A stretch of DNA of 61,718 nucleotides, filler included, from Bacteriovoracaceae bacterium (lineage in GTDB: Bacteria; Bdellovibrionota; Bacteriovoracia; Bacteriovoracales; Bacteriovoracaceae): assembly GCA_018649885.1 (NCBI GenBank). It is 4 parts of 4 records of this genome, joined end to end, with 100 filler letters (N's around TTAATTAATTAA, not from the genome) between each part and the next. Parts side by side here need not be neighbours in the genome. Positions count along the whole stretch, not along the records: positions 26,939 to 41,319 come from JABIHA010000070.1; 3 more parts are not named here. One strand, written 5' to 3'. The position numbers and the translations under genes were made by a program. The notes under the pieces were generated by a model, which saw only the letters and a list, made by a program, of their open reading frames with translations, had not been told where the DNA came from and searched no databases. Numbering within the stretch: position 1 is the stretch's first letter; each line of letters opens with the position of its first letter. This document shows, one piece after another, positions 26,642 through 50,816 of this stretch.

Positions 26642-26838
26642 ACCTAAGCCTGACCTAAAGCTGAAATTTACTTTTTCTTAAAACGTAGCCGTTGACCTAT
26701 TACTTCGCCCTCTCCCTCGCCCTCGCCAATCAAAATAAAATGTGCGGTTTTGTTAAATCATTTTAAATTCGAAGATTGGTTTGAACTTTCCGAGACATAC
26801 TTTACTATTTATTAGCGACACATACTTTACACTATGTG

Positions 26839-26938
26839 NNNNNNNNNNNNNNNNNNNNNNNNNNNNNNNNNNNNNNNNNNNNTTAATTAATTAANNNNNN
26901 NNNNNNNNNNNNNNNNNNNNNNNNNNNNNNNNNNNNNN
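26839..26938. other. Artificial contig linker
   Basis: 100-nt N run with central TTAATTAATTAA (stops in all six frames). Confidence 0.97.
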
Positions 26939-27074
26939 CCCAATTTAAGAACGGTGCGTGGATATCGCCATCTCAAAGAACTCAGAGAGGCAATGAAGAA
27001 CTTGAATTTTAAAGAAAATATTATTAAAGTGGCGTAAGGCATTGTTCAATTTCAACTGACAATGGGACTACGCC
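26939..27074 (+). mobile_element. 3' end of IS256-like insertion sequence
   Basis: Partial ORF NLRTVRGYRHLKELREAM..KVA* resembling IS256 transposase C-termini, then terminal aatttcaactgacaatgggactacgcc; sits at contig edge. Confidence 0.6.
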
Positions 27075-27082
27075 TTTTATAA

Positions 27083-27181
27083 ATGTCCATCTACAAGATT
27101 AACCTCAAAGACCATACAGCAACCAGCATCAATGGCATCACGTGTAAGCCGACAGAAACCAGGAAGGGTATTAAGGGCTAA
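27083..27181 (+). repeat. Truncated copy 1 of the 72-aa ORF at 31071
   Basis: MSIYKINLKDHTATSINGITCKPTETRKGIKG*. Confidence 0.85.
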
Positions 27182-27202
27182 GGACAAAACAAAGGAATAA
27201 CC

Positions 27203-27439
27203 ATGTCAATTGCATTATGGGCAAAAAATATTCGGTGTCCGAATTGCAAGTTTGAAGGGAAAGCGAAAGTTAAAGGCACAGGGGGCTGGCTTTTTTTAAT
27301 TGCGATAATTTTGTTTCTAATTGGAATTGTCTTCTGGCTATTATTAATTCTAGTACCTATCCTTATATTAATTGCAATATTTCGTCCCGCAAAACAAATA
27401 TGTCCTAATTGTAAATGGGAACATCCGATACCTCTTTAA
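27203..27439 (+). CDS. Small zinc-ribbon membrane protein (LITAF-like topology)
   Basis: CPNC - hydrophobic hairpin - CPNC; AAGGA RBS. Confidence 0.75.
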   Translation: MSIALWAKNIRCPNCKFEGKAKVKGTGGWLFLIAIILFLIGIVFWLLLILVPILILIAIFRPAKQICPNCKWEHPIPL

Positions 27440-27462
27440 TTTTAAAAACTTAATATTCCATA

Positions 27463-28341
27463 ATGAACCACCAACAGACTATTGATGAATTAGAAAAGAC
27501 TGGGAACTACAGAGTTCTGTACAAGTATCAAAAACCAAATTCTTATCATCAAGAGGATGGCTCAGAAAAAATAACTGGGATATTCCTAGATGTAGAAACT
27601 ACTGGGTTAAGCCATGAGATTGATAAAATTATTGAGATTGCCCTCGTTCCATTTGAGTTCTCAAAAGATGGTCGTATTTTCAATATTCTAGAAGCTTACT
27701 CTAGCTTAGAAGACCCTCAAACCCCTCTCCCTCAAAAGATAATCTCATTAACTGGCCTTACAGATGAAATGCTTACCGGAAAGTCCTTTGATGATGAAGC
27801 GATTAAGAGCATTGTCGAATCTTCTAGTTTAATAATTGCCCACAATGCAAATTTTGACAGGAAGTTTGTAGAGAAAAGATTCTCAATATTTCAAACAAAA
27901 TCATGGGCATGTTCGGCAAGCCAAGTGCCGTGGGAAGATGAGGGGCTTGCAAGTGTTAAACTAGAATACTTAGCTTATAAATTCGGGTATTTCTTTGAAG
28001 GTCATCGAGCAGAAATTGATTGTTGTGCTTCTCTGCATCTTCTTTCTATGACCCTTCCTAAGTCTGGTGATTTGGTTCTAAAGACCTTGCTTAATAATGC
28101 ACGGTTGAAGTCATATAGAATTTGGGCTCTTGGTAGCCCTTTTGAGTCAAAAGACTTGTTAAAAAATCGTGGGTATAGGTGGCCAGGTGATAATGGGAAA
28201 CATCGCTCATGGTATATAGATGTCGATGAAGAAAGCAAAGAGCAGGAATTGAAATATTTGAAAGAAGAAATCTTTAAGATGGATATTGATCTACCTATTG
28301 ATTCGATTACTGCCTTCAATAGATTTTCCGAACGTATTTGA
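27463..28341 (+). CDS. DEDDh 3'-5' exonuclease (DnaQ-like)
   Basis: LDVETTG, AHNANFD, HRAEID motifs. Confidence 0.9.
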   Translation: MNHQQTIDELEKTGNYRVLYKYQKPNSYHQEDGSEKITGIFLDVETTGLSHEIDKIIEIALVPFEFSKDGRIFNILEAYSSLEDPQTPLPQKIISLTGLTDEMLTGKSFDDEAIKSIVESSSLIIAHNANFDRKFVEKRFSIFQTKSWACSASQVPWEDEGLASVKLEYLAYKFGYFFEGHRAEIDCCASLHLLSMTLPKSGDLVLKTLLNNARLKSYRIWALGSPFESKDLLKNRGYRWPGDNGKHRSWYIDVDEESKEQELKYLKEEIFKMDIDLPIDSITAFNRFSERI

Positions 28342-28468
28342 TTTAGACAAGGGACTACTCGCATACAGAAATGACAATGGATAGAATAGCTATGCTGATT
28401 AAAACTGTTATGGCTGTCAGGTATGATGGTGGGAAGAAAACTCATAAATGGTGTGAGCGAGGGAACTT

Positions 28469-30025
28469 ATGAAGAAATGGATTAAATTATTCCTGATACT
28501 GTTCTTTATATTATTTAATTTATTTTTTTCAGGTAAGTTATTTGCCCTACAACCTGCCGGAGAAGTTGCTTATGATTTGGGTCATTTGATGACTAAATAC
28601 CTAGGGATTGATATTGCCGTGGAAAATTGCATTAAAAAATACCCACAATTAAAAGTTGATCTTAATGAGGCATCCAATTTCTGGAAAAATAAAAACAAGG
28701 AAAACATAAAAAGACTGAATAAGGTTTTTACTGCCTTCATATATAAAAACTCTAAAGATGAGGTAGGCTTTGAGCAAAATTTATCTAAATTAAAACAAAA
28801 AATGAAAGATGCAAACGTCCGAACGTTGCAGAATATGGGTGCTACTAAACTCGAGCTAACCTGCAGGGTCTTTCCTATCTATATAAAGTCGAAGAAGGGG
28901 GATTTTTTCCAAACTGAGAAAGACCGATTAGACAATATATTTAGTAAGGATTTAAATGTTTTCACCCCTGAACCAAAAATTGCCAGAAAAGAAGATCGTT
29001 TTTCTTCTGAAAACCCCACGACCCAACAGGCTCCAAACTCTTCAAAGAGACCTGAGTCTAAAGATTATTTAAAAAAGCTCGCTGATGCTAAGGAATATGG
29101 AAAGTACAATAATTCTGTCATTTTATTTATTAACAGATTTGCTACCTTAGCAAATGAGATTAGCGAAATCCAAGATTTATGCGGTGGGATTTTAAGCGAA
29201 GAAGTTTCGACTGATTATGCAAATAAAAGAGTAAAGATTATTGGTAATCAGGCTGAACTGAAACTGCAGGAGCTTAAAAATTCGCTGAAAGATATTTACA
29301 AGCCTGTCCTTACTTCATCGCTTAAGGATTCTGTGGCATTACTTAATATTTATATTTCCACCTTACCCAAAGATGCGAGAGATATTATAGATAATTATTA
29401 TGGGTTATTCAGGGCAGTAAGAGAGGGAAATGAAAACGACTTTTTCAAATTTACTAATAAGATTCAATTAAATGGGATTAAATTACTAGAGAATCAAAAT
29501 GCAATAATTTCTCTCGAAAAGAGCAAAATAGATGAGGAAGCACCCATATTTTACCTTTACGATACTATCCAAAACTTAAACAGATCATACATAGCTTTAG
29601 TTCAAGCAAGAATTTCGGAAGCTAACAACCCGGCCGAATCCCAACTTGACTTTCTCGAGGGAGATGTCGCTTTAAATATTCAACAGGCTGAAAAGTATAT
29701 AGAGGATTCTAAAGATAGCGTGGCAAAAGGATATTTTAAATTGGAGCATTGGATAAATAAGTTGACGAATTTAGGTTCAGAGAGGGAGTATTTACCTTTG
29801 GTGCGGGAGGTTGAGACTATATTCAAAGAAGCTCTTTCAGGTGAGGAAAAGTTGATAGAAGGACTTACTATTATTTTAGCGGATTTTCCAAAAGATGACT
29901 ACCTTGATGATTTTTCAGCATTGTGGGATCAAATTGCCTACCAAAGGCAATCATATTTTAAGAAAATATGGCCTCTAATTTCCAAGTTTAATGCCAAGTT
30001 TAATACTATGAACCGTGGCGATTAA
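28469..30025 (+). CDS. Secreted helical hypothetical protein
   Basis: Signal peptide ending LFA; 518 aa. Confidence 0.75.
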   Translation: MKKWIKLFLILFFILFNLFFSGKLFALQPAGEVAYDLGHLMTKYLGIDIAVENCIKKYPQLKVDLNEASNFWKNKNKENIKRLNKVFTAFIYKNSKDEVGFEQNLSKLKQKMKDANVRTLQNMGATKLELTCRVFPIYIKSKKGDFFQTEKDRLDNIFSKDLNVFTPEPKIARKEDRFSSENPTTQQAPNSSKRPESKDYLKKLADAKEYGKYNNSVILFINRFATLANEISEIQDLCGGILSEEVSTDYANKRVKIIGNQAELKLQELKNSLKDIYKPVLTSSLKDSVALLNIYISTLPKDARDIIDNYYGLFRAVREGNENDFFKFTNKIQLNGIKLLENQNAIISLEKSKIDEEAPIFYLYDTIQNLNRSYIALVQARISEANNPAESQLDFLEGDVALNIQQAEKYIEDSKDSVAKGYFKLEHWINKLTNLGSEREYLPLVREVETIFKEALSGEEKLIEGLTIILADFPKDDYLDDFSALWDQIAYQRQSYFKKIWPLISKFNAKFNTMNRGD

Positions 30026-30551
30026 GAAAGAACTAAAGCTCAAAAGTTGGCAAGGGCGTGAATGGAGAAGCATAAATGAGCGTAAATTGTTTAACTTTCC
30101 CCCTATTTTTTATGGTGACGAAATGACCTCTTCAGGATGTCCATATTGCGGAACGGCAATCGACACCATTGCTACGGCATGCCCTTATTGCAAAAAAGAG
30201 TTGCCTGAAGCTGTTATAGATTTTATTAAAAACGAAAAGGATAACGCAAAAAGTAAAATTGCGACCAAAGCAGGGTCGCAGGTATTTTTAGAATATTTTT
30301 TGGGCGTTTTTTTTATTATTTTATCAGCAATAATATTCTCAATTATCAATCCTGGTTCATTAGCCCGTCAAGCGGGTGGCCTGATGGGCCAATCTGTAGT
30401 TGTATTACTTTACACGGTGGTATATGTGAAATGGGGGTTTGGGAAAAGCCTTCCAAGCATTAAATTTTTTCCAAGAGATAATGGCTTTTTAGTTTTTTCT
30501 GAAATTTTATTAATTCATGAATTAATATTTTTGTATAGAGCCATGACATGA
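30015..30551 (+). CDS. Zinc-ribbon membrane protein
   Basis: CPYCG..CPYC then three hydrophobic segments; true start may be ATG 30123. Confidence 0.7.
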   Translation: MAIKKELKLKSWQGREWRSINERKLFNFPPIFYGDEMTSSGCPYCGTAIDTIATACPYCKKELPEAVIDFIKNEKDNAKSKIATKAGSQVFLEYFLGVFFIILSAIIFSIINPGSLARQAGGLMGQSVVVLLYTVVYVKWGFGKSLPSIKFFPRDNGFLVFSEILLIHELIFLYRAMT

Positions 30552-30673
30552 GTATCTGGAAAATTAACTTAGAGAAACAAACAGCAACCTCCATCAACGG
30601 CATCACCTTCAAGCTGACTGAAACAAATGGGGAGTATGAAGAATATTTCTTAACCCATAGAGAGTTGCTATGA
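30548..30673 (+). repeat. Truncated copy 2 of the 72-aa ORF at 31071
   Basis: MSIWKINLEKQTATSINGITFKLTETNGEYEEYFLTHRELL*; ATGA overlaps on both sides. Confidence 0.88.
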
Positions 30674-31037
30674 AAGAAATTCCATTTAAAGACTCCGCTT
30701 CTGCACTTGAATATATTGAAAAATTTTTTAAGGTCGGGATTCTCGAAGAAGAAATGTCATTTTACGGGAGAATTTTAAGTGAGGATACGACAGAATCTCC
30801 AATGGTATATATCGTTGAAATTATTATTAAGAAGAAAAACTATTTTCAACTAGTCATGAAAAAATAATGGTTGTAGGTGTTAAGCACGAAGAACTTTACC
30901 AAGATTTAAGGGAAGGAGATTTAATTATTTGGGGCTGTATGAATAAAGAAATGAAAATTCCGTCAGGTGTCATACTACATAAACTTGAGAATACTTTAGA
31001 TATACAAACTGGGGAATTCAAGATTATAGGCGCTTAA
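30670..31037 (+). pseudogene. Frameshifted hypothetical gene
   Basis: ORF stops at 30867 but a second frame continues LFSTSHEKIMVVGVKH..EGDLIIWG..TGEFKIIGA*; shift falls near A-rich run 30829-30839. Confidence 0.6.
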
Positions 31038-31070
31038 GGTGAATGAAGAATAATTAAGGCATGATGGGTT

Positions 31071-31289
31071 ATGGGTTCTTACAAAATTAACCTCAAAGAA
31101 GAAACGGCCACTTCTATCAACGGGATCATCTTCAAGCTGACTGAAACGAAACCGGGAGAGTATGAAGGCGTGTGCCTCAATCCAAAAAATATTCCGCCCG
31201 ATGATATGTGTGATGAGATATTAGGCAGGATGATTAAAGAGGCGGGGATGTTTTATGAGTTGGCGAAGAAGCGGGAGGAGAAATTATGA
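31071..31289 (+). CDS. 72-aa hypothetical protein, full-length member of the repeated ORF family
   Basis: MGSYKINLKEETATSINGIIFKLTETKPGEYEGVCLNP...; ATGA overlap with next gene. Confidence 0.8.
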   Translation: MGSYKINLKEETATSINGIIFKLTETKPGEYEGVCLNPKNIPPDDMCDEILGRMIKEAGMFYELAKKREEKL

Positions 31290-32173
31290 ATGGCCTCATT
31301 GATTGCAATGCTTGTCATACTGAAATTGCAAATTCAGCTGATAACTGCCCAAAATGTGGCGCAAAAAACGATTATCGCCATCCTGAGATTATCCGATTTT
31401 TAGAAAACGTAGAGAATATTAAGTTACCAGAAGAATGTGAATATGCGGTCACTGATCGAACATCCCTAGCCGTTCAACATATTTCCAAAAGTATCATGAA
31501 ACCACATTATCATTTTATCAAAGCATTCTTTCTTATTTTTGTATCTGCAGGCTTATCTTCTTTTTTTCTTGAATCTATGATTCTGTGGACATTTATGTAT
31601 TATATATTACCCACCTTCTTTTTAATTTATTCGATCATGGGTTTTGTTCAATATTGGTTTAAAATTAACGAACAAACGATGATTAACCTTGGTGCTGAAT
31701 TCTATTGTGGACATATTCAATCAGGGAATAGCCCGTCGTATGGAAATAAAATTATTTATTTTGATTTTTCAGAGAATCCAGTAAAAATTGAATCTAATGA
31801 TAATGAGTTTTGGTCAGAATTACTTAAGTTTTTTAATCATGAAGATGCAATGGGGGAAATATCTCAGCCAACATTATATAGAAGACATGAACGAAAACTC
31901 ATGAAAGTTGTGTTTTTGGCTTTGATCTTTGTTCCTGGCTTTCTTGTGGGGCTAGGTTACATTTCGCCCAACTGGGTGTTTGGTTCCATTTTCTTCGCTT
32001 ACTATTGGTCTATCTATGTATTTGGCGATCAGACCGGTGTATCTGATTTTCGTGAGCAAAGCACTGATGAGTTTATAAAGAGTGATTCGAGCATCACCCT
32101 CAAACTAATGTACTACATTGTAGGCATCGCTGTCGTGTACGGATTGGGTCATCTTATCTCATCATTGCTCTAG
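31286..32173 (+). CDS. Zinc-ribbon multi-pass membrane protein
   Basis: CNAC..CPKCG N-terminus; about five TM segments. Confidence 0.75.
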   Translation: MNGLIDCNACHTEIANSADNCPKCGAKNDYRHPEIIRFLENVENIKLPEECEYAVTDRTSLAVQHISKSIMKPHYHFIKAFFLIFVSAGLSSFFLESMILWTFMYYILPTFFLIYSIMGFVQYWFKINEQTMINLGAEFYCGHIQSGNSPSYGNKIIYFDFSENPVKIESNDNEFWSELLKFFNHEDAMGEISQPTLYRRHERKLMKVVFLALIFVPGFLVGLGYISPNWVFGSIFFAYYWSIYVFGDQTGVSDFREQSTDEFIKSDSSITLKLMYYIVGIAVVYGLGHLISSLL

Positions 32174-32393
32174 TCATTTTCTTTCTTTGAACTAATTTTT
32201 CTGTCCGATCCAAACAACTTCCCCGACTATTTTTATTGCATCTTTTTTTTGGGTTATGATCCTCAAAAAGTTTTTCTGTAAGTTGTTTATTCATTTAAAT
32301 TCGATTATTCTCCAATTCCATCCAGGAGTCACATTGAGAAGCTCAAACCTCCTCCCGCTCAATATGTAGAAGAGCAGTCCAGGCGTCAATTCT

Positions 32394-32798
32394 TTATTTG
32401 GTATTGTACTTGCCCTCCAAGCACTTCTTACACAGCGTTTGAGTAAAACCAGCAATAGCTTGCTTTTTTCCTGACGCACCACAGTCTTCGCAAATAGTGA
32501 ATGAACATTTTTCAGCTTCAGCACAAAATAAATCAGTAGTCGTATCACCGCCTTCCAAATAAAATCTCAACCCGCCCATTTTCTGTTTTACCTGTTTGGC
32601 TTTTGGGTTGAGCCCTTTTTCTTTGGAGTGTTTTGTAATTTTGACAGACAACTCGTGAATCAAGGAAAACCAACCATCACCACATGAAAAACCAAAGGAC
32701 ATTAGGTTTTCTGTAATAGGTTCCGAACGGCCACGATACAATTCAGGAAATTCTGCAAAAAGTTTTTCTGTTAATTTATTATTCACTTCTCTTCCCAC
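32394..32798 (-). CDS. Phage-type conserved hypothetical protein with C-terminal zinc finger
   Basis: FSCGDGW, QVKQKMGGLRFY, CEDCG..TLCKKC. Confidence 0.7.
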   Translation of the reverse strand: MGREVNNKLTEKLFAEFPELYRGRSEPITENLMSFGFSCGDGWFSLIHELSVKITKHSKEKGLNPKAKQVKQKMGGLRFYLEGGDTTTDLFCAEAEKCSFTICEDCGASGKKQAIAGFTQTLCKKCLEGKYNTK

Positions 32799-33223
32799 TC
32801 CTCAGCATCAACCGGCCTCCACACCCTACCCTGCTCAACATGCAAAATAGCATTCCAACCATCAATTTCTTTATGGATGGTCATTTGATCTAGGCATGTA
32901 ACCAAATTGCCCAACTCTGATTTGACTTCCTGATAGAGGAATCCGAAGAAGTCTTCTTTAAAGCCCTGGCAGATTAGAAATATCGATTGCGTCAATTCGT
33001 TATTAAAATTAAGGGAAGGACTGAATATGATCCATATCGTACCTTTCCCCTTATACTTGGATTTCCTCAACCATTCTTTAGTCGGCTGGCTAATAAATCG
33101 TAACCAGTCATGCCTATGTTCTTCTGGCAACTTGTTGATATTAAGTTCGAGAATAGGAACTGAAGTTCTATCGTTAAACACTAAATTAGGGTTATGTAGA
33201 GTTTTCATATTTCTTTTAGGCAT
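32783..33223 (-). CDS. Hypothetical protein
   Basis: 146 aa, AAGGGG RBS. Confidence 0.65.
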   Translation of the reverse strand: MPKRNMKTLHNPNLVFNDRTSVPILELNINKLPEEHRHDWLRFISQPTKEWLRKSKYKGKGTIWIIFSPSLNFNNELTQSIFLICQGFKEDFFGFLYQEVKSELGNLVTCLDQMTIHKEIDGWNAILHVEQGRVWRPVDAEEWEEK

Positions 33224-33411
33224 AGTTCGTCCCCTTTAAAAATAGATAAGCCCTCACACAGGCAAACGACAGCGATATCGCTGAACGTGCCTAAGGAGGG
33301 CGAATGTTTATGGATATTTATTGGTAGAGCGAGTAGAAGCAGGTTTGAATAGACTCAGGAATATTTCAGCATGGTTGTTTCACTGCTAGTGAAATTTTCC
33401 TTCTACTCCTT

Positions 33412-34908
33412 CTACTTTGATTTTGGCTGGTACTCTTTGCTGATTTTAACTTTCCAACGAATCTTACCCTGACTCTTGATCGAATCCAGATTCAAAGCTT
33501 TAAGCTCTTTACCAAACACAGATGCGTTACCGATCTTGTGCTTTGTAACTTTTCCATAGAGCTTATAAGCCTCAAACAGGTCTGTGGTAGTTACCCTTCC
33601 CTTTGAGTCATTAGTTAGAACATCTTTAGCGAACTTCTTTACCGGCTTGGAATCTAAAATAAACTCCTCTACCAATTCTCGACTTGAATTGGGAATTATG
33701 AAGCGACCTCGCTTATTTAATCTTTGTAACCCTGCTACGGCCCAGACCAGTATTCCTGAAAGTTCTTTGCCCAGTTTTGATTCGAGGTTCTTATCCTGTT
33801 CTTTCTCAGTGAAGATGCGGTTGAACTGGATAAACACGGCTCTCTCCATAAAACCATTTGAAGAATCATGGGTTTTAGGTAACTTATCGGCTTCTGGGTT
33901 TAAACACGCTATCAAACGACAGTAGGGACGGAAGGTTATAGATGACTTGCCCTTCTCGTCAGCTTCTATCAAATCCGATCCAACTATTGCCTTCAATAAG
34001 CTTGTAGGTATCTTTTCTCCTGGCTCGATCTCACTGGAAATATTTACCAGTTTATTTAAAAGCCCTGCTCTGATGTGTGAGTTGTTTAACCGGTGCAACT
34101 GCATGGCTGTGCAGTTCTCTGGACCACAAAGTTTCTCTATTATTTTGAGGATCAGACTTTTCCCATTCCTCCCATTCCCAACCATCCAGAAGAATTTATG
34201 CTGACTAGTGTCTGCTGTAAGGAGATATCCCGTTAACTCCTGAATCAAATCAATTTTGTTTTTCTTCTCAGAATCGGCATGGAATATCTGATTTAGAGTC
34301 CGCTTCCAGACGGGACATTTAGCATTAGCTTTCCAGTTAATGGGAAGTTTATTGAGAAGCATATGATCTGCGGAATGCTTCAGCAACTTTCCTGTTCGTG
34401 GATTTAGAGTTCCATTCTCAAGACAGATCAAGTTGTAGTTTTGGGTAAGACTCCCCTTGTCCTTTAAGTGCTTTATGGTTTTAATCACCGCACCGTATCT
34501 GCTAGGGTTAGCGTAAATACCATCTATCTTATAGACCTGATTAATGATCTCTGAGTCAGGTATCTTCTTCCAGTATCCATCCTGATATACACGAAGCCAT
34601 TCATCAGAGAACATGATCCGGTCTTCATGCAGGTCAAAGGTGTACTGGACAAGTTCTGGGATAGTGAGCCTTTTCCCATTTTTCAACTTCTCCGCAAACG
34701 AGAACCAGCCCGGTAACTTCTTAACAATAACTGGCCCGCTTCCGTTGCAATGTTTTCTCAGCATTTCCCTGATTAACTTCTCGTCCTGCTTTCGGTCTGT
34801 GATGTCCCAGTTCGGGTTCCTGGTTATTTCTAGAATAAATTCATAGACTGCTCTGCCGGGACTGCCTTGAATTTTTTTTGCCAGTTTCTTTTTATCAGTA
34901 GCGTTCAT
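33412..34908 (-). CDS. D5/P4-type SF3 helicase (primase-helicase family, no recognisable primase domain)
   Basis: LICLENGTLN D5_N segment, GNGRNGKS Walker A, ISSE Walker B, A.EKGK motif; GGAG RBS. Confidence 0.85.
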   Translation of the reverse strand: MNATDKKKLAKKIQGSPGRAVYEFILEITRNPNWDITDRKQDEKLIREMLRKHCNGSGPVIVKKLPGWFSFAEKLKNGKRLTIPELVQYTFDLHEDRIMFSDEWLRVYQDGYWKKIPDSEIINQVYKIDGIYANPSRYGAVIKTIKHLKDKGSLTQNYNLICLENGTLNPRTGKLLKHSADHMLLNKLPINWKANAKCPVWKRTLNQIFHADSEKKNKIDLIQELTGYLLTADTSQHKFFWMVGNGRNGKSLILKIIEKLCGPENCTAMQLHRLNNSHIRAGLLNKLVNISSEIEPGEKIPTSLLKAIVGSDLIEADEKGKSSITFRPYCRLIACLNPEADKLPKTHDSSNGFMERAVFIQFNRIFTEKEQDKNLESKLGKELSGILVWAVAGLQRLNKRGRFIIPNSSRELVEEFILDSKPVKKFAKDVLTNDSKGRVTTTDLFEAYKLYGKVTKHKIGNASVFGKELKALNLDSIKSQGKIRWKVKISKEYQPKSK

Positions 34909-34937
34909 ACGTGTCTCCTAATTTAGGCGTGTACAGT

Positions 34938-35297
34938 TCACTCTTCATCATCTTCTTCATCGTCCTCATCCATATCTTCATCCTTCGCTTCAATGTGCTT
35001 TTTGAATAAAGACCCAGAAAAATATTCATGGTCGATGGTTTCTTGCACAGAAGTAATTGATTCTTCCAACTCATCAAATGGCATACAGGACATCCATTCA
35101 CTCAAGTCGGCAACACTCTCTATAAGTTTTTTCAGACGGCTATCCCTGTCAGGATTGTTGACAAGGTTCTGTGCGTCAGTTACCGCACTTCTATTCCCAT
35201 CGATGTAGAACATTGCCACCTTCAAGTCATTCAATCTGACCCAGATGCTTTCCAATTCACTCTTTAATGCTCTCTTGCTTTCCAGTTGAACAATCAT
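34938..35297 (-). CDS. Hypothetical protein with acidic tail
   Basis: AAGGGG RBS before MIVQLESK; D/E-rich C-terminus. Confidence 0.65.
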   Translation of the reverse strand: MIVQLESKRALKSELESIWVRLNDLKVAMFYIDGNRSAVTDAQNLVNNPDRDSRLKKLIESVADLSEWMSCMPFDELEESITSVQETIDHEYFSGSLFKKHIEAKDEDMDEDDEEDDEE

Positions 35298-35472
35298 TGG
35301 TTTCCCCTTTCTAAATTTAGATTGGTCGTAGGAACAGAAAAGGCGCAAACCGCAGGTTGGATTGCGGACTCACGCCGGGGTTATTTCTATTGGAATTTAA
35401 CTTGGGATTTATTGAACTCGCTACAAATGGTAGCGTAGCCATTGAAGACCTGACTGGCCTATTTAGACTTAT

Positions 35473-35500
35473 ATTTTAACATTCCGAGCCGGACTGTCAA
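35473..35500 (-). promoter_or_regulatory. Sigma70-type promoter for replication module
   Basis: TTGACA-16 nt-TAAAAT with TGn extension on minus strand. Confidence 0.55.
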
Positions 35501-35569
35501 GGGGTATCCCTGCCTGATTAGGTCAAGCTAGGCAAGGCTTTGAGACCCAAGTTTACCGTTGTAAACTGT

Positions 35570-36004
35570 TTACCGCTGTAAACTTTCCTTCTTAAAAATA
35601 GTACCTTTTATTGTGCCGTTTTTCCAAGCGATTGCCCCCGCCTTAAGAAAACCATTTTTAAGATAAAATTTTATCGCCCGGTGATTGTCGCTTCTAACTG
35701 TCAACCAGATAGGATAGCTGATCGTTTTGCAAAAAATTTTCAAAACTCGGCCTGCTTCCCCGTTACCTTGATTAACGTTAGCGATTTGATGAAGCATTAT
35801 ATGGCTCCGGGGTATTTTAACTGAGCCTAAATTAACAGTCCGCTTATATTCGGTGAATATAATTACAACTTCACGGTCAAAAATAACCTCTTGGTCAATT
35901 ATCTTCCGTTTTAGATAATCATACCGGATGTGCGGAAAGACGGATTTATATTTACTGAAAATACTGCAAATATTATCCAAGTCATTGATGGATGCATATT
36001 TCAT
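35570..36004 (-). CDS. GNAT-family acyltransferase
   Basis: QGNGEA acyl-CoA loop, WLTVRSDNHRAIKFYLKNGF; ATGA overlap with methyltransferase. Confidence 0.8.
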   Translation of the reverse strand: MKYASINDLDNICSIFSKYKSVFPHIRYDYLKRKIIDQEVIFDREVVIIFTEYKRTVNLGSVKIPRSHIMLHQIANVNQGNGEAGRVLKIFCKTISYPIWLTVRSDNHRAIKFYLKNGFLKAGAIAWKNGTIKGTIFKKESLQR

Positions 36005-37071
36005 TTTCTCCTCCTCTTAAAGCAGAGAATCGGTTCAGACTTTTCCTGCTTCTGATTAATGCCCGGCATATCACTCAATCTCATCTTAAGTGTCTTCTTT
36101 AAGGTGAAGCCTTTATCTTTTGCTAATTCAATTACCTGGGATATTAAATAATCACCTCCTACATTAAACAAGAACCAACCGTTTGGTTTTAAAACTTGAA
36201 GAACATTATCCATCATCCCGCCTATAAACTTATCCAACCAAACAGGAAATTCTTCGTATTTTAAATACGATTGCGTTGACTCTTCAGAGTATTTTTCAAT
36301 ATCAAAATAAGGTGGACTAGTAAAAGCTAAATCAATCATCTCTGGCGGTATGAAGTCCTCGGCGCACTTCTGATGCAGAGATATTTTCTTTTCATTTAGA
36401 GGAACAGCGGTTTTACCAAAGTCTAGATTAAGTGAAAGAGGAACAAATTTTTCCCTGAAATCCTTTTCAAGTGCTTTCAACCCTTGAAAGGTTGGTGTAC
36501 ACGGCTCAGTACCGTAATACACTCTTCCTTTTTTTGATGCTAGGAAGCCAAGCAACCTACCCCCGTATCCGCAACACATATCCCAAACCACACCTTTTCC
36601 GGCATACTGGTCATAAATTGCTTTTGCGGCGGTAGGTCGAAAATTGGACACAGATTGGGTACCTGAATATATCTTTAACATCGACCTAAGACTGCCAATA
36701 TTAAAATCCTTATTTAGGTTTAATACTTTACGAATTACTTTTGTGAGATACATACTAAAAGCATTTTCAGGAGTATACTTCCCGCCGCACTCAACCTCCC
36801 ATGCATGAGGATGGTAAAACCAACCAAGCTTAGAACCGGTATGGGTCTGTCGGACTTCATTTCCTCGGATAATTTCAGACGACTCTACACAACACAAATC
36901 ATTAAACATTCGTATGCAAGCAGATTCAGTCATTAGATGGTACGGGAAACCCCGCTGTCGAATAATGCTAACAGCAGAGCTTACCCACTCTGTTTGCTCC
37001 TGATCGTTCATTACTTCCCAAGCTTCTTTACATAGATCAGGAAACGACACTCTATTCTGTAACTTTCCCAT
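36001..37071 (-). CDS. Putative amino (N4C/N6A) DNA methyltransferase
   Basis: FRPTAAK, DMCCGYGGRL SAM motif I, FTSPPYF motif IV; start at MGKLQ (ORF track 37092). Confidence 0.8.
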   Translation of the reverse strand: MGKLQNRVSFPDLCKEAWEVMNDQEQTEWVSSAVSIIRQRGFPYHLMTESACIRMFNDLCCVESSEIIRGNEVRQTHTGSKLGWFYHPHAWEVECGGKYTPENAFSMYLTKVIRKVLNLNKDFNIGSLRSMLKIYSGTQSVSNFRPTAAKAIYDQYAGKGVVWDMCCGYGGRLLGFLASKKGRVYYGTEPCTPTFQGLKALEKDFREKFVPLSLNLDFGKTAVPLNEKKISLHQKCAEDFIPPEMIDLAFTSPPYFDIEKYSEESTQSYLKYEEFPVWLDKFIGGMMDNVLQVLKPNGWFLFNVGGDYLISQVIELAKDKGFTLKKTLKMRLSDMPGINQKQEKSEPILCFKRRRK

Positions 37072-37888
37072 CGGCTTCCTCCTTCCCATCAAGTTGAACC
37101 AAGCTGATTCGTTTTGTTAGTGCGGTGCTGATTAAATTTAGTCGGTTGATAATGGCTTCCAGTTCAGATACAGATAAGTTTTTACCGTTGCTCAGTGCAG
37201 TCTCCATTGTGTCTATAACTCCATCCACCTTATCCTTTTCAGACTTTTCCTTTTTTGGGGCGGCATTGACCAGCTTCTTCTGCTTCTGCGCCTTTTTCTT
37301 AAGCGATTCAATCACACCATCATGAGTCGGCTCGATCTCTCCCTTCTCAATTTTTTTCAAGGTCTCCATACCAGTATCTTTGTTTAATTTCGAGAGGTCT
37401 CTGAGCGTGGAGAAGGATAGTTTGGAATGTTTTCCCTTTATCTCCTCTTTGACCGCCTTCGGCATTTTTGCGATCTTCTTATTTTGAGAGACCGTTGACT
37501 TCTTTATCCCCAGGTCTTTAGCTAGGTCTTTTTGCTTGATTTTTCCTTTTCGGAGGGCTTGCCTGATAGCTTCCGCCTTCTCCAGAGGGAGGATACCTTC
37601 CCGCTGAATACTGGCTATTAAGCTTAGTTTCCTTGAGTTGTTTGCCTTAGGTTCGATTAAGGCCGGAATTTCTTTTAACCCAGCTTTTCTTGCGGCTTCT
37701 ACTCTGCGCCACCCTTTGATTACGTAGTAGTGATCTGGTTGACCATTGGGACATACTAGAATCGGTTGAAGTATCCCTGATGATTTAATGGATTCGGTCA
37801 ACTTCGTCACATCTGTCTCAGTCTTTCTCGCACGTATTGGGTGTGCTTGAAGGTTTGCTACCGGTACTGAAATGATTAATTTATTCAT
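37052..37888 (-). CDS. ParB/Spo0J-family protein with HTH
   Basis: LTESIKSSGILQPILV, GWRR (GxRR), HTH QKDLAKDLGIKKSTVS; CAGGAG RBS; no ParA nearby. Confidence 0.85.
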   Translation of the reverse strand: MNKLIISVPVANLQAHPIRARKTETDVTKLTESIKSSGILQPILVCPNGQPDHYYVIKGWRRVEAARKAGLKEIPALIEPKANNSRKLSLIASIQREGILPLEKAEAIRQALRKGKIKQKDLAKDLGIKKSTVSQNKKIAKMPKAVKEEIKGKHSKLSFSTLRDLSKLNKDTGMETLKKIEKGEIEPTHDGVIESLKKKAQKQKKLVNAAPKKEKSEKDKVDGVIDTMETALSNGKNLSVSELEAIINRLNLISTALTKRISLVQLDGKEEADGKVTE

Positions 37889-37921
37889 GATTTTTTCTCC
37901 TGTATTTCAGGTTTTAGGTAT

Positions 37922-38326
37922 TCAAGCCGCTCGGTGTGTCTGCCTCATCATTTGCATCAGCACAAAATCTTTTGCCAATTTGGATCGGAGATTTTTTTCA
38001 CGCTCCAGTTGCCTCCTATTGTTTTCATCCCTCCATTCCATTCTGTGAACTCCGAATGGGTAAACATGCTTAGCGATTCTTGTGATAATTCCGCCTGTCT
38101 CATTTGCTTCATCAAAAACTTCACCGGCATTTGTTCCATCACATGCGATTAGTAAAATCTTAAAAACATGGTTACCACCTTCTTCCCTGTAATAATCGTG
38201 GACTATCTCTCCCTCCACCACTTTGAACTTACCTCCAACGTTCTCCCAATATGCGATTTCATCGCCAGTTACTAAGCTACGATTTGCCGGGATCGGGTAA
38301 ATTGTTTTTCCTATCTTGAGTGACAT
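37922..38326 (-). CDS. Hypothetical protein, first gene of leftward operon
   Basis: CAGGAG RBS before MSLKIGK. Confidence 0.7.
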   Translation of the reverse strand: MSLKIGKTIYPIPANRSLVTGDEIAYWENVGGKFKVVEGEIVHDYYREEGGNHVFKILLIACDGTNAGEVFDEANETGGIITRIAKHVYPFGVHRMEWRDENNRRQLEREKNLRSKLAKDFVLMQMMRQTHRAA

Positions 38327-38513
38327 GGTTTTCTCCTGTTTTGGTTTATAGTTGACTACCACCCACATCTAAAGTAAGCTTCATATCATTAATTTCAGGA
38401 CAAACATAATCCTAGGCTTAGATCATGCGTAAATATTACCCGAAGCTAATGCTTTATGCAAGAAAAAACATTAGCTTTAGATAATAAAATTCAACTAGCA
38501 AATACAGGGACTT

Positions 38514-39191
38514 ATGGCTAAAAGCACAAAAACTGAAGAAAAAAGAGCTTTAGGTTTGACAGAAAAGCAGGCTGATTTAGTCGATTTCCTGTTTTCTGAT
38601 TTGAGGAAATTAGAAAAGTTTTTAGAGGCAGGAACTAAAAAATATTTAAAGGATAAACACTTCCCGCCAAAAGGTAAAAAAGCAAATGGAAAAACTTTTA
38701 CCGACTGGCTTGAGTTCATCTTATCCTTAAATAGCATTTATGAGGTAACAGACACTAGTAATCCTTCTGCTCTAGCAAGTGCGTTAGACATAAAACCACC
38801 TTCAGTTTTTAATTCATTGCAAAGAGCAAAAATCCCTTCCTCCTGGGTTTTTACATGCGTTAAAAAATATAAAGGAGATATGGAATATCTAATGGCAACA
38901 GATTTTCTCGATAAATCCTTAGACGATTTTATAGCGGGTAGAAAAAAAGCAAAGGCAACAGACGGCAAGAAAGCGACAAAAATCTCTGCCGCCTTGAAAT
39001 TGGAAGAAGACCCGATATTTTCAGACCAAAAAGAGGCAGTGAGCGTCGATGAATCAGACTTTAATAGTAAGCTAAAGCTTATAGAGAAAATGGATGAGGA
39101 TGCATATGATTTGCTGACAGCTAAAATTAACAGAGTTTTTAAAAAACACTATAAGTCGCTGGGGCAAACTCCACGCTCAGGTACCCGCTAA
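38514..39191 (+). CDS. CI-like phage repressor (HTH)
   Basis: SALASALDIKPPSVFNSLQRAKIPSSWV resembles phage CI HTH; divergent from leftward operon. Confidence 0.6.
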   Translation: MAKSTKTEEKRALGLTEKQADLVDFLFSDLRKLEKFLEAGTKKYLKDKHFPPKGKKANGKTFTDWLEFILSLNSIYEVTDTSNPSALASALDIKPPSVFNSLQRAKIPSSWVFTCVKKYKGDMEYLMATDFLDKSLDDFIAGRKKAKATDGKKATKISAALKLEEDPIFSDQKEAVSVDESDFNSKLKLIEKMDEDAYDLLTAKINRVFKKHYKSLGQTPRSGTR

Positions 39192-39273
39192 TTTGAGGCT
39201 GTTTCAGATTTGGTAGAACTTGCGTATTAAGGAAGGGAGAAAAGGCAGGAGAAGAAAAGGCAAGCTTCGGAGT

Positions 39274-39624
39274 TTACCCTTTCTTTTTTTGATTTTTCAC
39301 TATCCAATCATCTATATCTAACAATCTGTAGTAGACCCTGCCATTATCATCAAGCTTAAAGAATTTAGGGCCACCTTCTTTCTTCCATCTACAATGTTCA
39401 GCCCATTTTTTACTTTTTTTAATACCCTTGCTGGCTAGATATTCGAGCATCTCATCCGTATTCATATTTTCCTTGAATTGTTTTTCTTCTTTTTCTTCTG
39501 GCTTTATCTCGTCTTTAAACACTGTGATTTCTGGTTCTACTATTCCATCTTCTCTTTTTTCATCTTCAAAATAGAACCCTGAATCAAAACTAAAGTTCAC
39601 TGAATTTTTATTTTTCTTTGCCAT
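39274..39624 (-). CDS. Excisionase-like winged HTH protein
   Basis: MNTDEMLEYL..RWKKEGGPKFFK...RVYYRLLDIDDWI; overlaps integrase stop. Confidence 0.7.
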   Translation of the reverse strand: MAKKNKNSVNFSFDSGFYFEDEKREDGIVEPEITVFKDEIKPEEKEEKQFKENMNTDEMLEYLASKGIKKSKKWAEHCRWKKEGGPKFFKLDDNGRVYYRLLDIDDWIVKNQKKKG

Positions 39625-40936
39625 TATTCACACCCCACAAATTTAAAATTTCTGCTTCGATATCCTCCAAAGCTCCTCGCATTCGCCTAACCTTTACCTT
39701 GACATAACGGTCAGTAACATCTCCACTCGGCTCTGAGTGATTCATCATGGACTTTCTTGTTTTCTTTGGGATATCTAATGATTCTGCTACCGTGGAAAAC
39801 TCACGCCTTAAATCATGAGCCGTAAACTCTACCCCAACGGCTTCGCTGATTTCCTGAAAAGCTTTCCTCGCATACTTAACGTGACCTTCTTTATTGTGCG
39901 CCGGAAATAGATACCCATTTTTAGCTTTCTTGACCCTTCTCCTTAGAACTTTCTCTAGAAAATCACAGTATGGAATTTTCAAGGATTTTCCATTTTTTGT
40001 TTCTGGCACAAAAATAGTTTTTGCCTCAAAATCTATATGCTTTGTTTGTAGTCCACCCGCCTCTACACTTCTAAATCCTGTCAGCCACAGCGTAAATATA
40101 AAGTCACTGTATTTTGATCTCTCATAATCTAAAAGTTCCTGGTAAATTTTAGGGTAGTGATGATCTTCAATCTGACTTTGCCGTGGTTCAACCTCAAACC
40201 ATGCCTCCATGTCTGTAATGTGTTCTACAGGGTTATATGACAATAACGGTTTACCACTTGAATCTTTAAATTGTTTCTTGTGGAAGTTGAAAAGAGATCG
40301 CAACAATCGCATGGTTAAATTAGCCTCAGCGTTCCCCGTGGAATCTGCTACCTCCAAACCGTTCTTCTTCCTATTTTTTATAACGTCTTTTTTAATTTTC
40401 AAGTGACGATTGAGAGCCATATCTCCTGTTATGTCATTGATAGGCTTATCCAGCCAATCTGAGAAGACACCCTTCGTGCTGATTGATCGCTCATACTCTC
40501 TCAAAGTGCTGTCCTTTATTTTTCCCCGTTCCACCTTGAAATGCCTGAATTTCTGGAATAGCTTTTTTAAGGTAATTTCCTTCGACTTCAGAGCTACCTT
40601 TGTAGCTTCACCTTTTTTTAATGTTTCTCTAATATTTTCCCCTGTTGCCATTCTTCCAATGTACTCGTCTGCAATCTTTCGTGCCTGTTCTGGAGTCTTC
40701 TCGTCAATGCTTGCAATTGTTACCCGAACGTTTTTTCCATTGATTGATTTTTGACAGACATATGATTTTTTACTCCGGCAAACACGCACCCCAAATCGGG
40801 TTGATAGCGTGTCCCAAACAATAACCTCTCGCACTTTGTCGGGGTTGGCCTTATTTTTGACCAGTTCATCGAAATCAAGCTTATCTATCGCTGTGCGATT
40901 CAACTTGGTCTCTATTCTAGCTCTACTCTCTTTCAT
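39608..40936 (-). CDS. int: Tyrosine integrase, P4-like with arm-binding domain
   Basis: WDT...FGVRV..SKKSY arm domain; catalytic TGFR, TKNG, HDLRR, NH, Y; start at MKESR after AAGGA (ORF track 40969). Confidence 0.92.
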   Translation of the reverse strand: MKESRARIETKLNRTAIDKLDFDELVKNKANPDKVREVIVWDTLSTRFGVRVCRSKKSYVCQKSINGKNVRVTIASIDEKTPEQARKIADEYIGRMATGENIRETLKKGEATKVALKSKEITLKKLFQKFRHFKVERGKIKDSTLREYERSISTKGVFSDWLDKPINDITGDMALNRHLKIKKDVIKNRKKNGLEVADSTGNAEANLTMRLLRSLFNFHKKQFKDSSGKPLLSYNPVEHITDMEAWFEVEPRQSQIEDHHYPKIYQELLDYERSKYSDFIFTLWLTGFRSVEAGGLQTKHIDFEAKTIFVPETKNGKSLKIPYCDFLEKVLRRRVKKAKNGYLFPAHNKEGHVKYARKAFQEISEAVGVEFTAHDLRREFSTVAESLDIPKKTRKSMMNHSEPSGDVTDRYVKVKVRRMRGALEDIEAEILNLWGVNNGKEK

Positions 40937-40945
40937 GGCATCCTT

Positions 40946-41075
40946 CATTGAATACAGCACATAAAACAACTAATTTTTAAAGCAACTAACTTTTATGGCA
41001 ACTAATTCTCTGTATTCAGAGTAGTAGAGCAACTAATTTCTGTCAATCTATTTTGTATTCAATGGGTATTCAATG
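40946..41075. repeat. att-arm region with two short repeat families
   Basis: CAACTAA at 40967, 40983, 40999, 41030; GTATTCAATG direct at 41055 and 41066, inverted at 40946. Confidence 0.75.
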
Positions 41076-41214
41076 CAAAAGTAAAAGGGAAGGCAGAGCA
41101 ATTAGAAATGGCATTAAAAAATAACACCATAACTTACTTAACCTAAACACTTTATAGAGCAGATTAGAAGCGAAGGTGGGGTTTTTAGAAGAGGCTAGAA
41201 ATGGGAAATAAAAT

Positions 41215-41252
41215 TTAAGAGTCAGTTGCTCTACCAATTGAGCTAACGGCCC
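41215..41252 (-). tRNA. 5' half of tRNA-Lys(CTT), interrupted after anticodon loop
   Basis: GGGCCGT TA GCTC AATTGGTA GAGC A ACTGA CT-CTT-AA then ATTTT instead of TCAGT. Confidence 0.85.
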
Positions 41253-41283
41253 CACTTATCTGTCTGGATGAAAATACCGGATC

Positions 41284-41312
41284 ATTCTAACTAATCTGTA
41301 CCGGACTCGCAA
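41284..41312 (-). promoter_or_regulatory. Sigma70-type promoter of the tRNA gene
   Basis: TTGCGA-17 nt-TAGAAT on minus strand, 31 nt upstream of tRNA. Confidence 0.6.
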
Positions 41313-41319
41313 CCACTCG

Positions 41320-41419
41320 NNNNNNNNNNNNNNNNNNNNNNNNNNNNNNNNNNNNNNNNNNNNTTAATTAATTAANNNNNNNNNNNNNNNNNNNNNNNNN
41401 NNNNNNNNNNNNNNNNNNN
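41320..41419. other. Artificial contig linker
   Basis: N run with TTAATTAATTAA. Confidence 0.97.
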
Positions 41420-45235: not shown

Positions 45236-46549
45236 ATGACAGCATCACGGTTGATGAAATTAATCATACTTCTCACTCTTATTATCCCCCAAGCATTTGC
45301 CTCTTACGTAACCGAAAACTTTTTCGTTAAATTAAAAAAAGGTAAATCTCTTCCTGAAACTGATTTAATTAGTAAAAGTAAAAATCTCTTTGGCGAACTC
45401 CATATTGTTTACGCCGACAACCAAATTGTGGCGCGAGACTTTTTTAAGTCTCATCCAGATGTTGCCTATGTAGAAGGTAACCATAAAGGGGAAAGACAAA
45501 ACCTTGTAATAGAAGAACCCCTAGAATTTATCGATGCCCCACAGACAGGAATGCTCAGTTTCAAAGACCCTTACTACAGTAGACTCTGGGCCTTTAAAAG
45601 CTCGGTGGTTATGGGAATGGGTGTAGACGATGCTTATGTTAATTTCCCACGAGCTCACAAAGACAAGATTATTGTAGCGGTAGTAGATACAGGAGTTGAT
45701 TACAACCACCCTGATTTAAAAAACCAAATGTGGGTTAATAAAAATGAAATAGCAGGAAACGGAATCGATGATGACCTCAATGGTTACATTGATGATGTCC
45801 ATGGAATTAACCTTTTAATTAAAAAAGGCGGAAAAGCAACAGGTAACCCAATGGATGGCCATATGCACGGAACACACGTAGCAGGTACCATAGCTGCTGC
45901 TCAAAATAACGGAGTGGCCATTGCAGGAGTTTCTTCGCATGCAAGAATCATGGCCATTAGAGCTGTTCCCAATTCCGGTGATGAAACCGACCTTGATGTC
46001 ATTGAGGCCTTCTTATATGCTGGTAAAAATGGTGCTAAAATTATTAACTGCTCTTTCGGAAAATATAAAAATGAAAAAGGCATGGCCGTATCCGATGCTA
46101 TCAAGCACATCGGCGATAAGTACGACACCCTAGTTATTGCAGCAGCTGGGAATGAAAATAACAATATTGATAAAGTCAGTGTCTACCCAGCAAGTTACCC
46201 CAATTCCAATTTGCTAGTAGTTGCTGCCACAACAAATAGAGGCAGAAAGGCCTACTTCTCAAACTATGGCCCCAAAAATGTCGATCTAGCAGCTCCTGGA
46301 GTTGGAATTTATTCAACGACTCCCGGTAGTAGAGTCAAATCTCTTTCTGGGACTTCAATGAGCTCCCCCAACACCGCCGGTGTTGCTGCAGAGATTCTAT
46401 CTCAATACCCTGAGTTAAAAGCACTAGAGCTAAAAAAGATCATGATGGACTCAGTTACCAAGTCAGCTCGCTTTAAAGGCAAAGTGGGAGCCGCTGGAAT
46501 GCTGAATCTCAACAAGGCGCTAAAGGCAGCAGACGATTTTACAAAATAG
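45236..46549 (+). CDS. Secreted S8 subtilase
   Basis: VAVVDTG, HGTHVAG, AAGN, SGTSM. Confidence 0.93.
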   Translation: MTASRLMKLIILLTLIIPQAFASYVTENFFVKLKKGKSLPETDLISKSKNLFGELHIVYADNQIVARDFFKSHPDVAYVEGNHKGERQNLVIEEPLEFIDAPQTGMLSFKDPYYSRLWAFKSSVVMGMGVDDAYVNFPRAHKDKIIVAVVDTGVDYNHPDLKNQMWVNKNEIAGNGIDDDLNGYIDDVHGINLLIKKGGKATGNPMDGHMHGTHVAGTIAAAQNNGVAIAGVSSHARIMAIRAVPNSGDETDLDVIEAFLYAGKNGAKIINCSFGKYKNEKGMAVSDAIKHIGDKYDTLVIAAAGNENNNIDKVSVYPASYPNSNLLVVAATTNRGRKAYFSNYGPKNVDLAAPGVGIYSTTPGSRVKSLSGTSMSSPNTAGVAAEILSQYPELKALELKKIMMDSVTKSARFKGKVGAAGMLNLNKALKAADDFTK

Positions 46550-46566
46550 GTAGTACTCATCAATCG

Positions 46567-46605
46567 AAAAAAGAGTTGAAAAGTTAATTTTCAACTCTTT
46601 TTTTT
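46567..46605 (+). terminator. Intrinsic terminator
   Basis: aaaaaagagttgaaaa-gttaa-ttttcaactctttttt perfect inverted repeat. Confidence 0.8.
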
Positions 46606-46742
46606 CCCCGAAATACATAGCGTACAACACACCGCTTTAAAACAAACTAAATCCGTTATCCTTACAAAGTATTGCCGCATTTGGGAATTTCCCCCCTACC
46701 CTTTAAAATATATTCAGTTCAAATTTTCAATAGGATTTTAGG

Positions 46743-49690: not shown

Positions 49691-49792
49691 GTAGACCTTT
49701 GATCAAAAGTTAAATAGCAGACACCTATTTCAAAGGATTGCGTGTTTGCTATTTCAGGGTCAATCACAAAAGTTTTGTAACGAATAGAAAAT

Positions 49793-50416: not shown

Positions 50417-50729
50417 TCATCTCCCCACTCATACTTGCACCGCAAGCTTGGCACTTATTATCAACGCTTCCAGCATCATAAACACCTGAAATTGCTTCAT
50501 GATTTACTTCATGTCCTGAGAGATTATGCGAAAATTCCTCTTGCATCACCTTCATCACCATCTCTTTGTCTTTCTCTTTTCCCCAAAGCTCACAGGTCGG
50601 AGAACATCCGGTCGTACATGTGTTTTCACTGGCCAACATATCCAGATCAACGCCTAAATTTTTAAATTTTGATTTCACCATCTTGGCCTCAGAAATAGAT
50701 AATATTCCTAAGCAAAACTTATCTTCCAT
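50382..50729 (-). CDS. Small protein with C-terminal zinc ribbon
   Basis: CTTGC and CQACG..CPDCG; GAGG RBS. Confidence 0.7.
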   Translation of the reverse strand: MEDKFCLGILSISEAKMVKSKFKNLGVDLDMLASENTCTTGCSPTCELWGKEKDKEMVMKVMQEEFSHNLSGHEVNHEAISGVYDAGSVDNKCQACGASMSGEMSECPDCGLCYG

Positions 50730-50816
50730 TAGATATACCTCACTCCTATAATTGTACCTTATTACTATAATTTATATCCCGAATATAGGCCATGCCTAAC
50801 CTCTTAAGGTGCAGTA

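Follow-up and report, generated by a model that had tools for sequence, protein, structure and literature searches.

This report concerns an array of small genes in a 61,718-nucleotide (nt) stretch of DNA, filler included, taken from assembly GCA_018649885.1 of a Bacteriovoracaceae bacterium (bin G000); the whole stretch is called the window. An open reading frame (ORF) of 72 amino acids (aa) occurs in the array three times, once whole and twice broken, each time followed by unrelated cargo genes. In Nitrospinaceae, the same ORF is found both whole and broken among reassorted neighbours, in elements integrated at tRNA genes and in small islets of the chromosome.

Three ORF copies, their cargo and their contig

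The three copies lie on the + strand at the positions given by an earlier interpretation made from the DNA alone (the sequence-only reading). Copy 1 (27083..27181, +) is a 5' fragment of 32 aa whose similarity extends to about codon 29. Copy 2 (30548..30673, +) is a frameshifted 5' fragment of 41 aa, with a 3-nt deletion and then a 1-nt deletion before similarity resumes, to LNP. Copy 3 (31071..31289, +) is the full 72-aa ORF. Their matches to a profile of 42 sequences (E 7e-10, 2e-13 and 8e-44, respectively) mean that the resemblance is not due to chance, and they form one repeat family, in which identity to copy 2 over 68 nt is 74% and 81% for the other two copies. Synonymous differences dominate between the window copies (proportion of synonymous sites that differ, pS, 0.54-0.76; of nonsynonymous sites, pN, 0.16-0.23), and the nearest relatives of each copy are found in other loci (84-97% identity, versus 71-82% within the window); the copies are thus separately descended homologues and not a recent tandem duplication, as had been proposed. 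The exact 18-mer common to copies 2 and 3, also reported before, is indeed there. It was considered as a recombination site and rejected as merely the family's common sequence, being present in 11 of 38 intact copies.

The cargo after copy 1 begins with a 78-aa zinc-ribbon membrane protein (27203..27439, +; Pfam zf-LITAF-like, E 9e-8) and a 292-aa DEDDh 3'-5' exonuclease (27463..28341, +; NF006615 above cut-off), a recurring pool gene with 88% DNA identity to a copy on contig C70 of the same bin. Next comes a second recurring linker, the 3' remnant of an SNase (thermonuclease) gene (28388..28462, +), which has matches in many loci and whose full genes belong to PF00565; the end of its short frame overlaps, as ATGA, the gene for a 518-aa protein that falls in no family above cut-off (28469..30025, +). 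A zinc-ribbon membrane protein of 142-178 aa, depending on start choice, follows (30015..30551, +; weak zinc-ribbon matches only), and its stop overlaps the ATG of copy 2, again as ATGA. Downstream of copy 2 are ORFs of 65 and 56 aa without a family (30670..31037, +), possibly one split gene; a search run without a positive control found no homologue of the 65-aa ORF in 120 genomes. Copy 3 is followed by a 295-aa zinc-ribbon membrane protein (31286..32173, +). The ATGA overlaps of copies 2 and 3 with their downstream genes are confirmed. A third recurring piece, the 3' remnant of a cI-like S24 repressor gene (32177..32259, -; full genes PF00717 and PF07022), has 86-91% matches in seven of 120 Nitrospinota genomes. 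The sequence-only reading had missed both this and the SNase remnant.

Runs of N at window positions 26839-26938, 41320-41419 and about 55027-55126 separate contigs C30, C33, C34 and C41, and an artificial linker of stop codons lies in the first two runs, which makes the window a string of joined contigs and not a scaffold. The array has its own contig, the 14,381-bp G000:C33 (window 26939-41319), a separateness that had previously been overlooked. Since C33 is bounded by the gaps with the artificial linker, its neighbours in the window, which we take to be Bdellovibrionota-like, are no evidence of context. The last 105 nt of C33 are 100% identical to a tRNA-Lys locus in a Nitrospina sp. genome (G062:C19:339-443). 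The tRNA at this end has no match at E<=1e-15 in 40 relatives of G000, a profile search finds no homologue of the ORF in 60 relatives, and C33, like C70, C74 and C90, is a tetranucleotide outlier within G000. From these observations we infer that C33 is Nitrospina DNA misplaced in a foreign bin. Contig C70 is also Nitrospina DNA in the bin of another lineage, and C74 probably is as well; thus, genes on these contigs should not be credited to G000. C70 carries a sister element with a 5' fragment of the ORF, the exonuclease, a full copy and different cargo.

Reassorted neighbours and broken copies

Homologues of the 72-aa ORF form 749 clusters at E<=0.001. The family is one of Nitrospinota, the phylum of G062, where matches occur in 27 of 120 genomes, with more than one match in 14 of these, and residues 1 to at least 68 are spanned by just eight of 58 matches. 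The sequence-only reading had named single-copy homologues with constant neighbours as the contrary case; homologues are instead multi-copy, and their neighbours are highly variable. For comparison of neighbours, the loci comprised 16 genome contigs, the best 80 among 220 metagenome matches and additional fetched regions. The 70 full copies with enough flanking DNA (98 sequences) have 45 upstream types and 47 downstream types in 56 combinations, which connect into nine reassortment networks. The claim that flanks reassort through the ORF is upheld. One four-way set consists of L094 (U0,D0), L046 (U0,D5), L036 (U1,D5) and L043 (U1,D17), where U and D denote upstream and downstream types. The copy in L046 is a mosaic, equal to that of L094 over the first 80 nt and to that of L036 from about nt 46, with the switch in a 35-nt identical run.

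Pairs with the same downstream type are more alike at the 3' end of the ORF in 11 of 12 cases (0.92 versus 0.82), and pairs with the same upstream type are on average more alike at the 5' end (0.90 versus 0.79); the two groups differ at a Mann-Whitney p of 0.007, with pairs that are not independent. When 38 intact copies were compared in triplets, 52 of 50,122 fell below 1e-5, versus 0-8 in 20 codon shuffles. This triplet test kept 38 of 56 rows; rows with non-homologous ends had inflated an earlier count of 70 significant triplets. Blocks common to different loci begin or end in pool genes: L007 and L093 have in common a 4-kb dehydrogenase/TonB-receptor block, 99% identical, from the ATG of the ORF to a Sel1 remnant, and the block common to L046 and L094 runs from one ORF copy to the next. 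The same core-gene site holds different cargo in L144 and L148, and likewise in L143 and L159. A homologue of the 295-aa cargo, 94% identical to that in the window, and an ORF copy 75% identical to copy 3 with a similar C-terminus each have a longest contig of 15,829 bp, presumably one and the same; this hints that the pairing was kept while the linker was exchanged.

After removal of duplicates and pieces at contig edges, there are 68 full copies, 26 3' fragments, 17 5' fragments and eight internal ones, with right ends scattered over nt 56-182 and left starts over nt 14-138. The 5' part of the ORF had been proposed as the shared anchor; this does not hold up, given the excess of 3' fragments and the scattered break points. 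Adjacent copies are co-oriented in 23 of 25 pairs and cluster 0.1-5 kb apart. Nor is the ORF the one anchor, as had been supposed, for SNase and Sel1 pieces behave alike. Of 96 non-redundant locus groups, 35 contain SNase pieces, whose 35 3' ends are followed by 29 downstream types; 3' remnants dominate by 25 to 0; co-orientation with the ORF is seen in 38 of 38 SNase pieces and 28 of 28 Sel1 pieces, in loci selected by the ORF. Pieces of SNase, Sel1 and S24-repressor genes all recur, and the array in the window contains two of the three kinds. Short non-coding or unidentified segments (L100:1745-1880, L079:451-567, L021:9772-9826) also recur beside the ORF, in 5-6 locus groups.

Chromosomal pieces are found in islets of 1-3 kb flanked by core genes, and most of these islets have no integrase within the fetched DNA. 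A tRNA gene is within 3 kb in five of 17 fully flanked loci and in none of the other 12, and 12 of 14 tRNA-near loci are on the 3' side of the tRNA. Pool cargo, from a scan of 103 proteins chosen from 194 representatives plus five from C70, includes SNase, Sel1, MORN, cyclic-nucleotide (cNMP)-binding, HNH, Mrr, GmrSD, IrrE-like, UreD and TonB-receptor genes.

The absence of recognisable IntI and attC, stated in the sequence-only reading, is borne out by profile and pattern searches. No IntI scored above cut-off in five genomes, and the integrase in the window reached 24 bits with TIGR02249, versus a cut-off of 265. Pairs of attC cores, sought with a simple pattern rather than a covariance model, numbered 0 in the window cargo and 38 versus 32 in shuffled sequence over 414 kb. 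The ORF copies form no stable hairpin (z -0.7 to 1.8), no stretch of reduced synonymous variation was found in the ORF (p 0.57), and the spread of fragment ends over nt 14-182 revealed no fixed crossover point. Without IntI, attC or a fixed crossover point, the array does not qualify as an integron.

The intact copies are under purifying selection, with a median ratio of nonsynonymous to synonymous rates (dN/dS) of 0.146 (676 pairs; 39 intact of 56 rows), which settles a check that had been proposed. The predicted fold of the 72-aa protein is a three-stranded sheet plus a long helix (mean model confidence, pLDDT, 87.6). Pfam, NCBIfam and PADLOC contain no family for it, and PHROG gives a single weak match (E 0.016); a full profile search for distant relatives led to no named family, with many of the matches partial. 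With the model as query, Foldseek found nothing at E<=0.001 in PDB or BFVD. The best viral structural row is the uncharacterised phage protein A0A6J5Q7Y5 (E 2e-3, TM 0.65); Atlas rows are unnamed, and the nearest structural rows are uncharacterised phage proteins. The best VIA Z, 5.6 for SpoVG, is within background. Scans gave no confirmed relative in viral contigs, no ORF match in phage records and one marginal match in plasmid records (E 0.04, when the query was a distant homologue), and an Rfam search found nothing at E<=0.5. Our guess is that the protein is probably a phage-derived accessory factor with no part in recombination.

In 14 of 34 downstream types, a gene begins no more than 25 nt from the ORF stop, nine with a motif like the Shine-Dalgarno (SD) sequence and four by ATGA, and promoter-like sites are at chance level (20 versus 20.6 expected). 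An SD-like motif for the ORF itself is supplied by just six of 35 upstream types. The suggested role of the ORF as a translational leader is partly supported, by the 14 closely coupled types and not by the remaining 20. In 13 of 45 upstream types, TAA precedes the start codon; this was considered as a sign of exact gene abutment and rejected, because it is the in-frame stop of an upstream gene in just two of 35. In-frame fusions of ORF pieces to cargo exist. As separate observations, two single-contig chromosomes (L108:8296-9888, L147:10184-11770) encode a SelO-family protein whose N-terminus (MCxNPKDIPP) is an internal ORF piece, and in P0364-P0367 (243-261 aa), a stable fusion lineage, the whole ORF is the C-terminal part behind a 170-aa domain without a Pfam family.

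Explanations and related systems

We favour, with a probability of roughly 0.6, an explanation in which the 72-aa ORF would serve passively, as a linker of shared homology: exchange of the cargo on either side would come from host recombination within the ORF and within SNase and Sel1 genes, and fragments from illegitimate joints and deletions. DNA would arrive on satellite-like elements or by transformation; among the Nitrospinota genomes tested, ComEC is present in four of four and DprA in five of five, and both also occur in most control genomes. A RecA-type crossover in an identical run of 35-50 nt could anchor the arriving DNA beside a resident copy. Replacement would follow if the other end then underwent a second crossover, within a different pool gene, and addition, with a fragment left behind, if it joined illegitimately. 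Joints near gene ends would survive, we propose, because the purine-rich 3' end of the ORF or a short leader peptide keeps promoterless cargo translated.

Several results weigh against exchange through such a linker. The loci were picked by the presence of the ORF, which inflates its apparent centrality, and most are short-read metagenome contigs. The pairwise homoplasy index (PHI) test on 56 copies is null (p 0.41-0.82), and the expected 5' excess appears in just eight of 19 same-upstream pairs. The excess of low-p triplets over shuffles is no more than moderate; among the 52, 33 have the upstream flank of the 5' parent, apparently owing to one pair (L077/L097), and in none does the child have the downstream flank of the 3' parent. 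Two complete co-oriented copies, expected from fresh single-crossover integration, were found in no locus. Fragment order was compared with one-step homology-facilitated illegitimate recombination (HFIR), which predicts fragments first and the full copy last, the order in the window; by our tally the window, C70, L046, L056 and L098 fit, and L026, L037, L054, L055 and L068, half of the ten informative loci, do not.

Much of this could also come from ordinary island erosion, with the ORF as frequent satellite cargo, islands made by tRNA integrations and random deletions, and crossovers as a mere by-product that does not drive cargo turnover. The scattered break points, the similar fragmentation of other genes, the tRNA-near islets with their preference for the 3' side and the PHI result are what erosion would give, and remnants of this kind are held in tycheposon islands as the available text describes them (10.1101/2020.12.28.424599). 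It does not lead one to expect pieces so nearly all co-oriented, copies so closely clustered, mosaic copies whose halves follow their flanks, common blocks bounded in pool genes, or the 12 fully flanked loci far from any tRNA; we regard it as unlikely, though a serious contender. Assembly artefact is improbable. Strain variants chained or switched at a repeat could fake both tandem copies and reassorted flanks, and C33 is a stray contig in its bin while most loci are short-read contigs; however, two other assemblies (not necessarily independent samples) match at 100% identity, L023 over window 29555-31570, with copies 2 and 3, and L024 over 31076-32271. Further, the window copies have at most 18 identical nt in common and the putative parents just 35-53, and fragments lie at several sites in the single-contig chromosomes G061, G135 and G136.

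The dedicated cassette system suggested by the sequence-only reading is not supported, and an integron-like form of it, in which a specific recombinase would process a site within the ORF and insert cassettes, is largely refuted and very improbable: polarised arrays, gene-sized cargo, translational coupling and the tyrosine integrases that adjoin some arrays would suit it, but the searches above gave no recombinase, site or nucleotide-level hot spot, and many islets have no integrase at all in the fetched DNA. Least probable of all is that leader selection, not recombination, explains retention, with short peptides and the purine-rich 3' end giving cargo its starts and ribosome sites. The ATGA overlaps at copies 2 and 3 and at the SNase remnant, the closely coupled downstream types (raw counts with no chance baseline), the dominance of SNase 3' remnants and the in-frame fusions are all in its favour; the majority of downstream types, which are not closely coupled, and the rarity of SD-like motifs for the ORF itself are not. 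A leader role complements the linker explanation and does not replace it.

Beyond the passive linker, we suggest tentatively that Nitrospinaceae may possess a distributed, recombinase-free counterpart of the integron. Polarised linkers (the 72-aa ORF, SNase and Sel1) across satellites and islets would make sites mutually compatible, so that cargo as varied as nucleases, TonB receptors and urease accessory genes could be captured, stacked, translationally coupled or fused, and moved from site to site, with the 72-aa gene kept partly for this. The likeness to integrons is in outcome, namely polarised arrays of small promoterless genes in variable order; the difference is the lack of IntI, attC and a fixed crossover point. 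In lambdoid linker or boundary sequences, P4/P2 cargo hot spots and Neisseria minimal mobile elements, variable genes are exchanged by homologous recombination in conserved neighbours that form a fixed flank pair at one position, whereas the linker here is multi-copy and dispersed.

In T4-type phages, promoter early stem-loop (PeSL) units of ~100 bp are conserved among ORFans in hyperplastic regions, where, in the account available (PMC2839356), recombination swaps, deletes and inserts flanking genes and yields chimeric units. The present system is similar in its repeated short unit, reassorting flanking genes and chimeric units (tempered by the null PHI test). PeSLs as described are non-coding promoter and stem-loop terminator cassettes of phages; here, in contrast, purifying selection acts on the units, which are coding genes; they and their remnants are found in satellites and in islets of cellular genomes, and promoter-like sites are at chance level. 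HFIR is the mechanism given for type VI secretion system (T6SS) immunity arrays of V. cholerae and for Rhs and contact-dependent inhibition (CDI) orphan arrays in the text consulted (PMC5361080): incoming DNA is anchored at one end by a conserved stretch and joined illegitimately at the other, and successive events stack genes and leave remnants, much as we propose here. Those arrays, so far as described there, involve one locus, one effector/immunity class and a fixed 5' anchor, unlike the many loci, unrelated cargo, several linkers, and 5' and 3' remnants in no fixed order found here. Small variable segments from illegitimate recombination are, according to the portion seen of PMC2884548, common in bacteria.

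A literature word search, with subscription papers and supplements outside its scope, found no account of the 72-aa family or of Nitrospina islets. Nitrospina are main marine nitrite oxidisers, and little has been written about turnover in their flexible genome. The ORF offers an inexpensive marker for their variable islets, and the linker model is a testable account of how small accessory modules might move without an integrase. More generally, a protein-coding gene family could serve as a dispersed exchange linker and as a source of gene fusions.

The carrier element and bin G000

Contig C33 runs from the end of an IS256-type insertion sequence (IS) through + strand cargo to - strand primase, methyltransferase and ParB genes, a regulator, a - strand tyrosine integrase and the 5' half of tRNA-Lys(CTT). 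The 3' end of the IS256/Mutator-family element (26939..27074, +) matches L055:3103-3238, where a Transposase_mut gene ends, at 91% identity over 136 nt. Eight nt (27075-27082) separate it from the ATG of copy 1, and the other IS end is absent from the assembly; these 8 nt are possibly the target duplication of the insertion, a length that we take to be usual for IS256-type elements. Beyond the array are a P4-family primase/D5 helicase (33412..34908, -; TIGR01613 above cut-off) and a DNA methyltransferase with a ParB-like gene (36001..37888, -; family profile matches). Library scans place a weakly matching cI-like regulator (+) and a small gene before the integrase (-) at 38514..39624; the small gene may, from its position, be excisionase-like. 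The tyrosine integrase (39608..40969, -; PF00589 and PF13356) has an arm-binding domain and is not IntI. The attachment end (41215..41319, -) comprises the tRNA-Lys(CTT) 5' half at 41215-41252, identical at 38 of 38 nt to the tRNA on C70, and 67 nt of upstream host DNA.

A tyrosine integrase adjoining a partial tRNA is a hallmark of satellite- or tycheposon-type elements, and another is a primase/helicase with regulators and no structural PHROG, which is what the scanned element proteins show, in an element whose left end is missing. From its gene content, the carrier appears to be a satellite-like element integrated in tRNA-Lys. Tycheposons and elements like phage-inducible chromosomal islands (PICI) have, in the text available (10.1101/2020.12.28.424599), the same integrase, partial tRNA, primase/helicase and cargo, and seed islands with remnants at tRNA genes. 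As described there, they differ from the present element in that a coding linker is here repeated within the cargo, and the host here is Nitrospina, a term missing from the main text of that paper.

Window 46376-51647 and 60771-61408 have 84-88% identity with contigs C117, C50 and C149, also of G000, which points to a mixture of strains or species in this bin. Short sequences recur at many G000 contig ends (for example, window 26779-26838 and 55127-55267) and are likely collapsed IS elements of the main genome. Copies of the ORF in L011, L014, L015 and L022 are on 2-5 kb contigs in bins labelled Opitutales, Marinimicrobia, Saprospiraceae and SAR86, reflecting either transfer or further mis-binning. 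Contigs C70 and C74 belong to the same tRNA-Lys island, with an intact tRNA between elements on C70 and a 3' part on C74; their ends overlap by 108 nt, and both carry a gene like that for integration host factor (IHF). C70:17330-20885 holds nucleotidyltransferase-like and patatin-like genes, which we presume to resemble a cyclic-oligonucleotide-based antiphage signalling system (CBASS).

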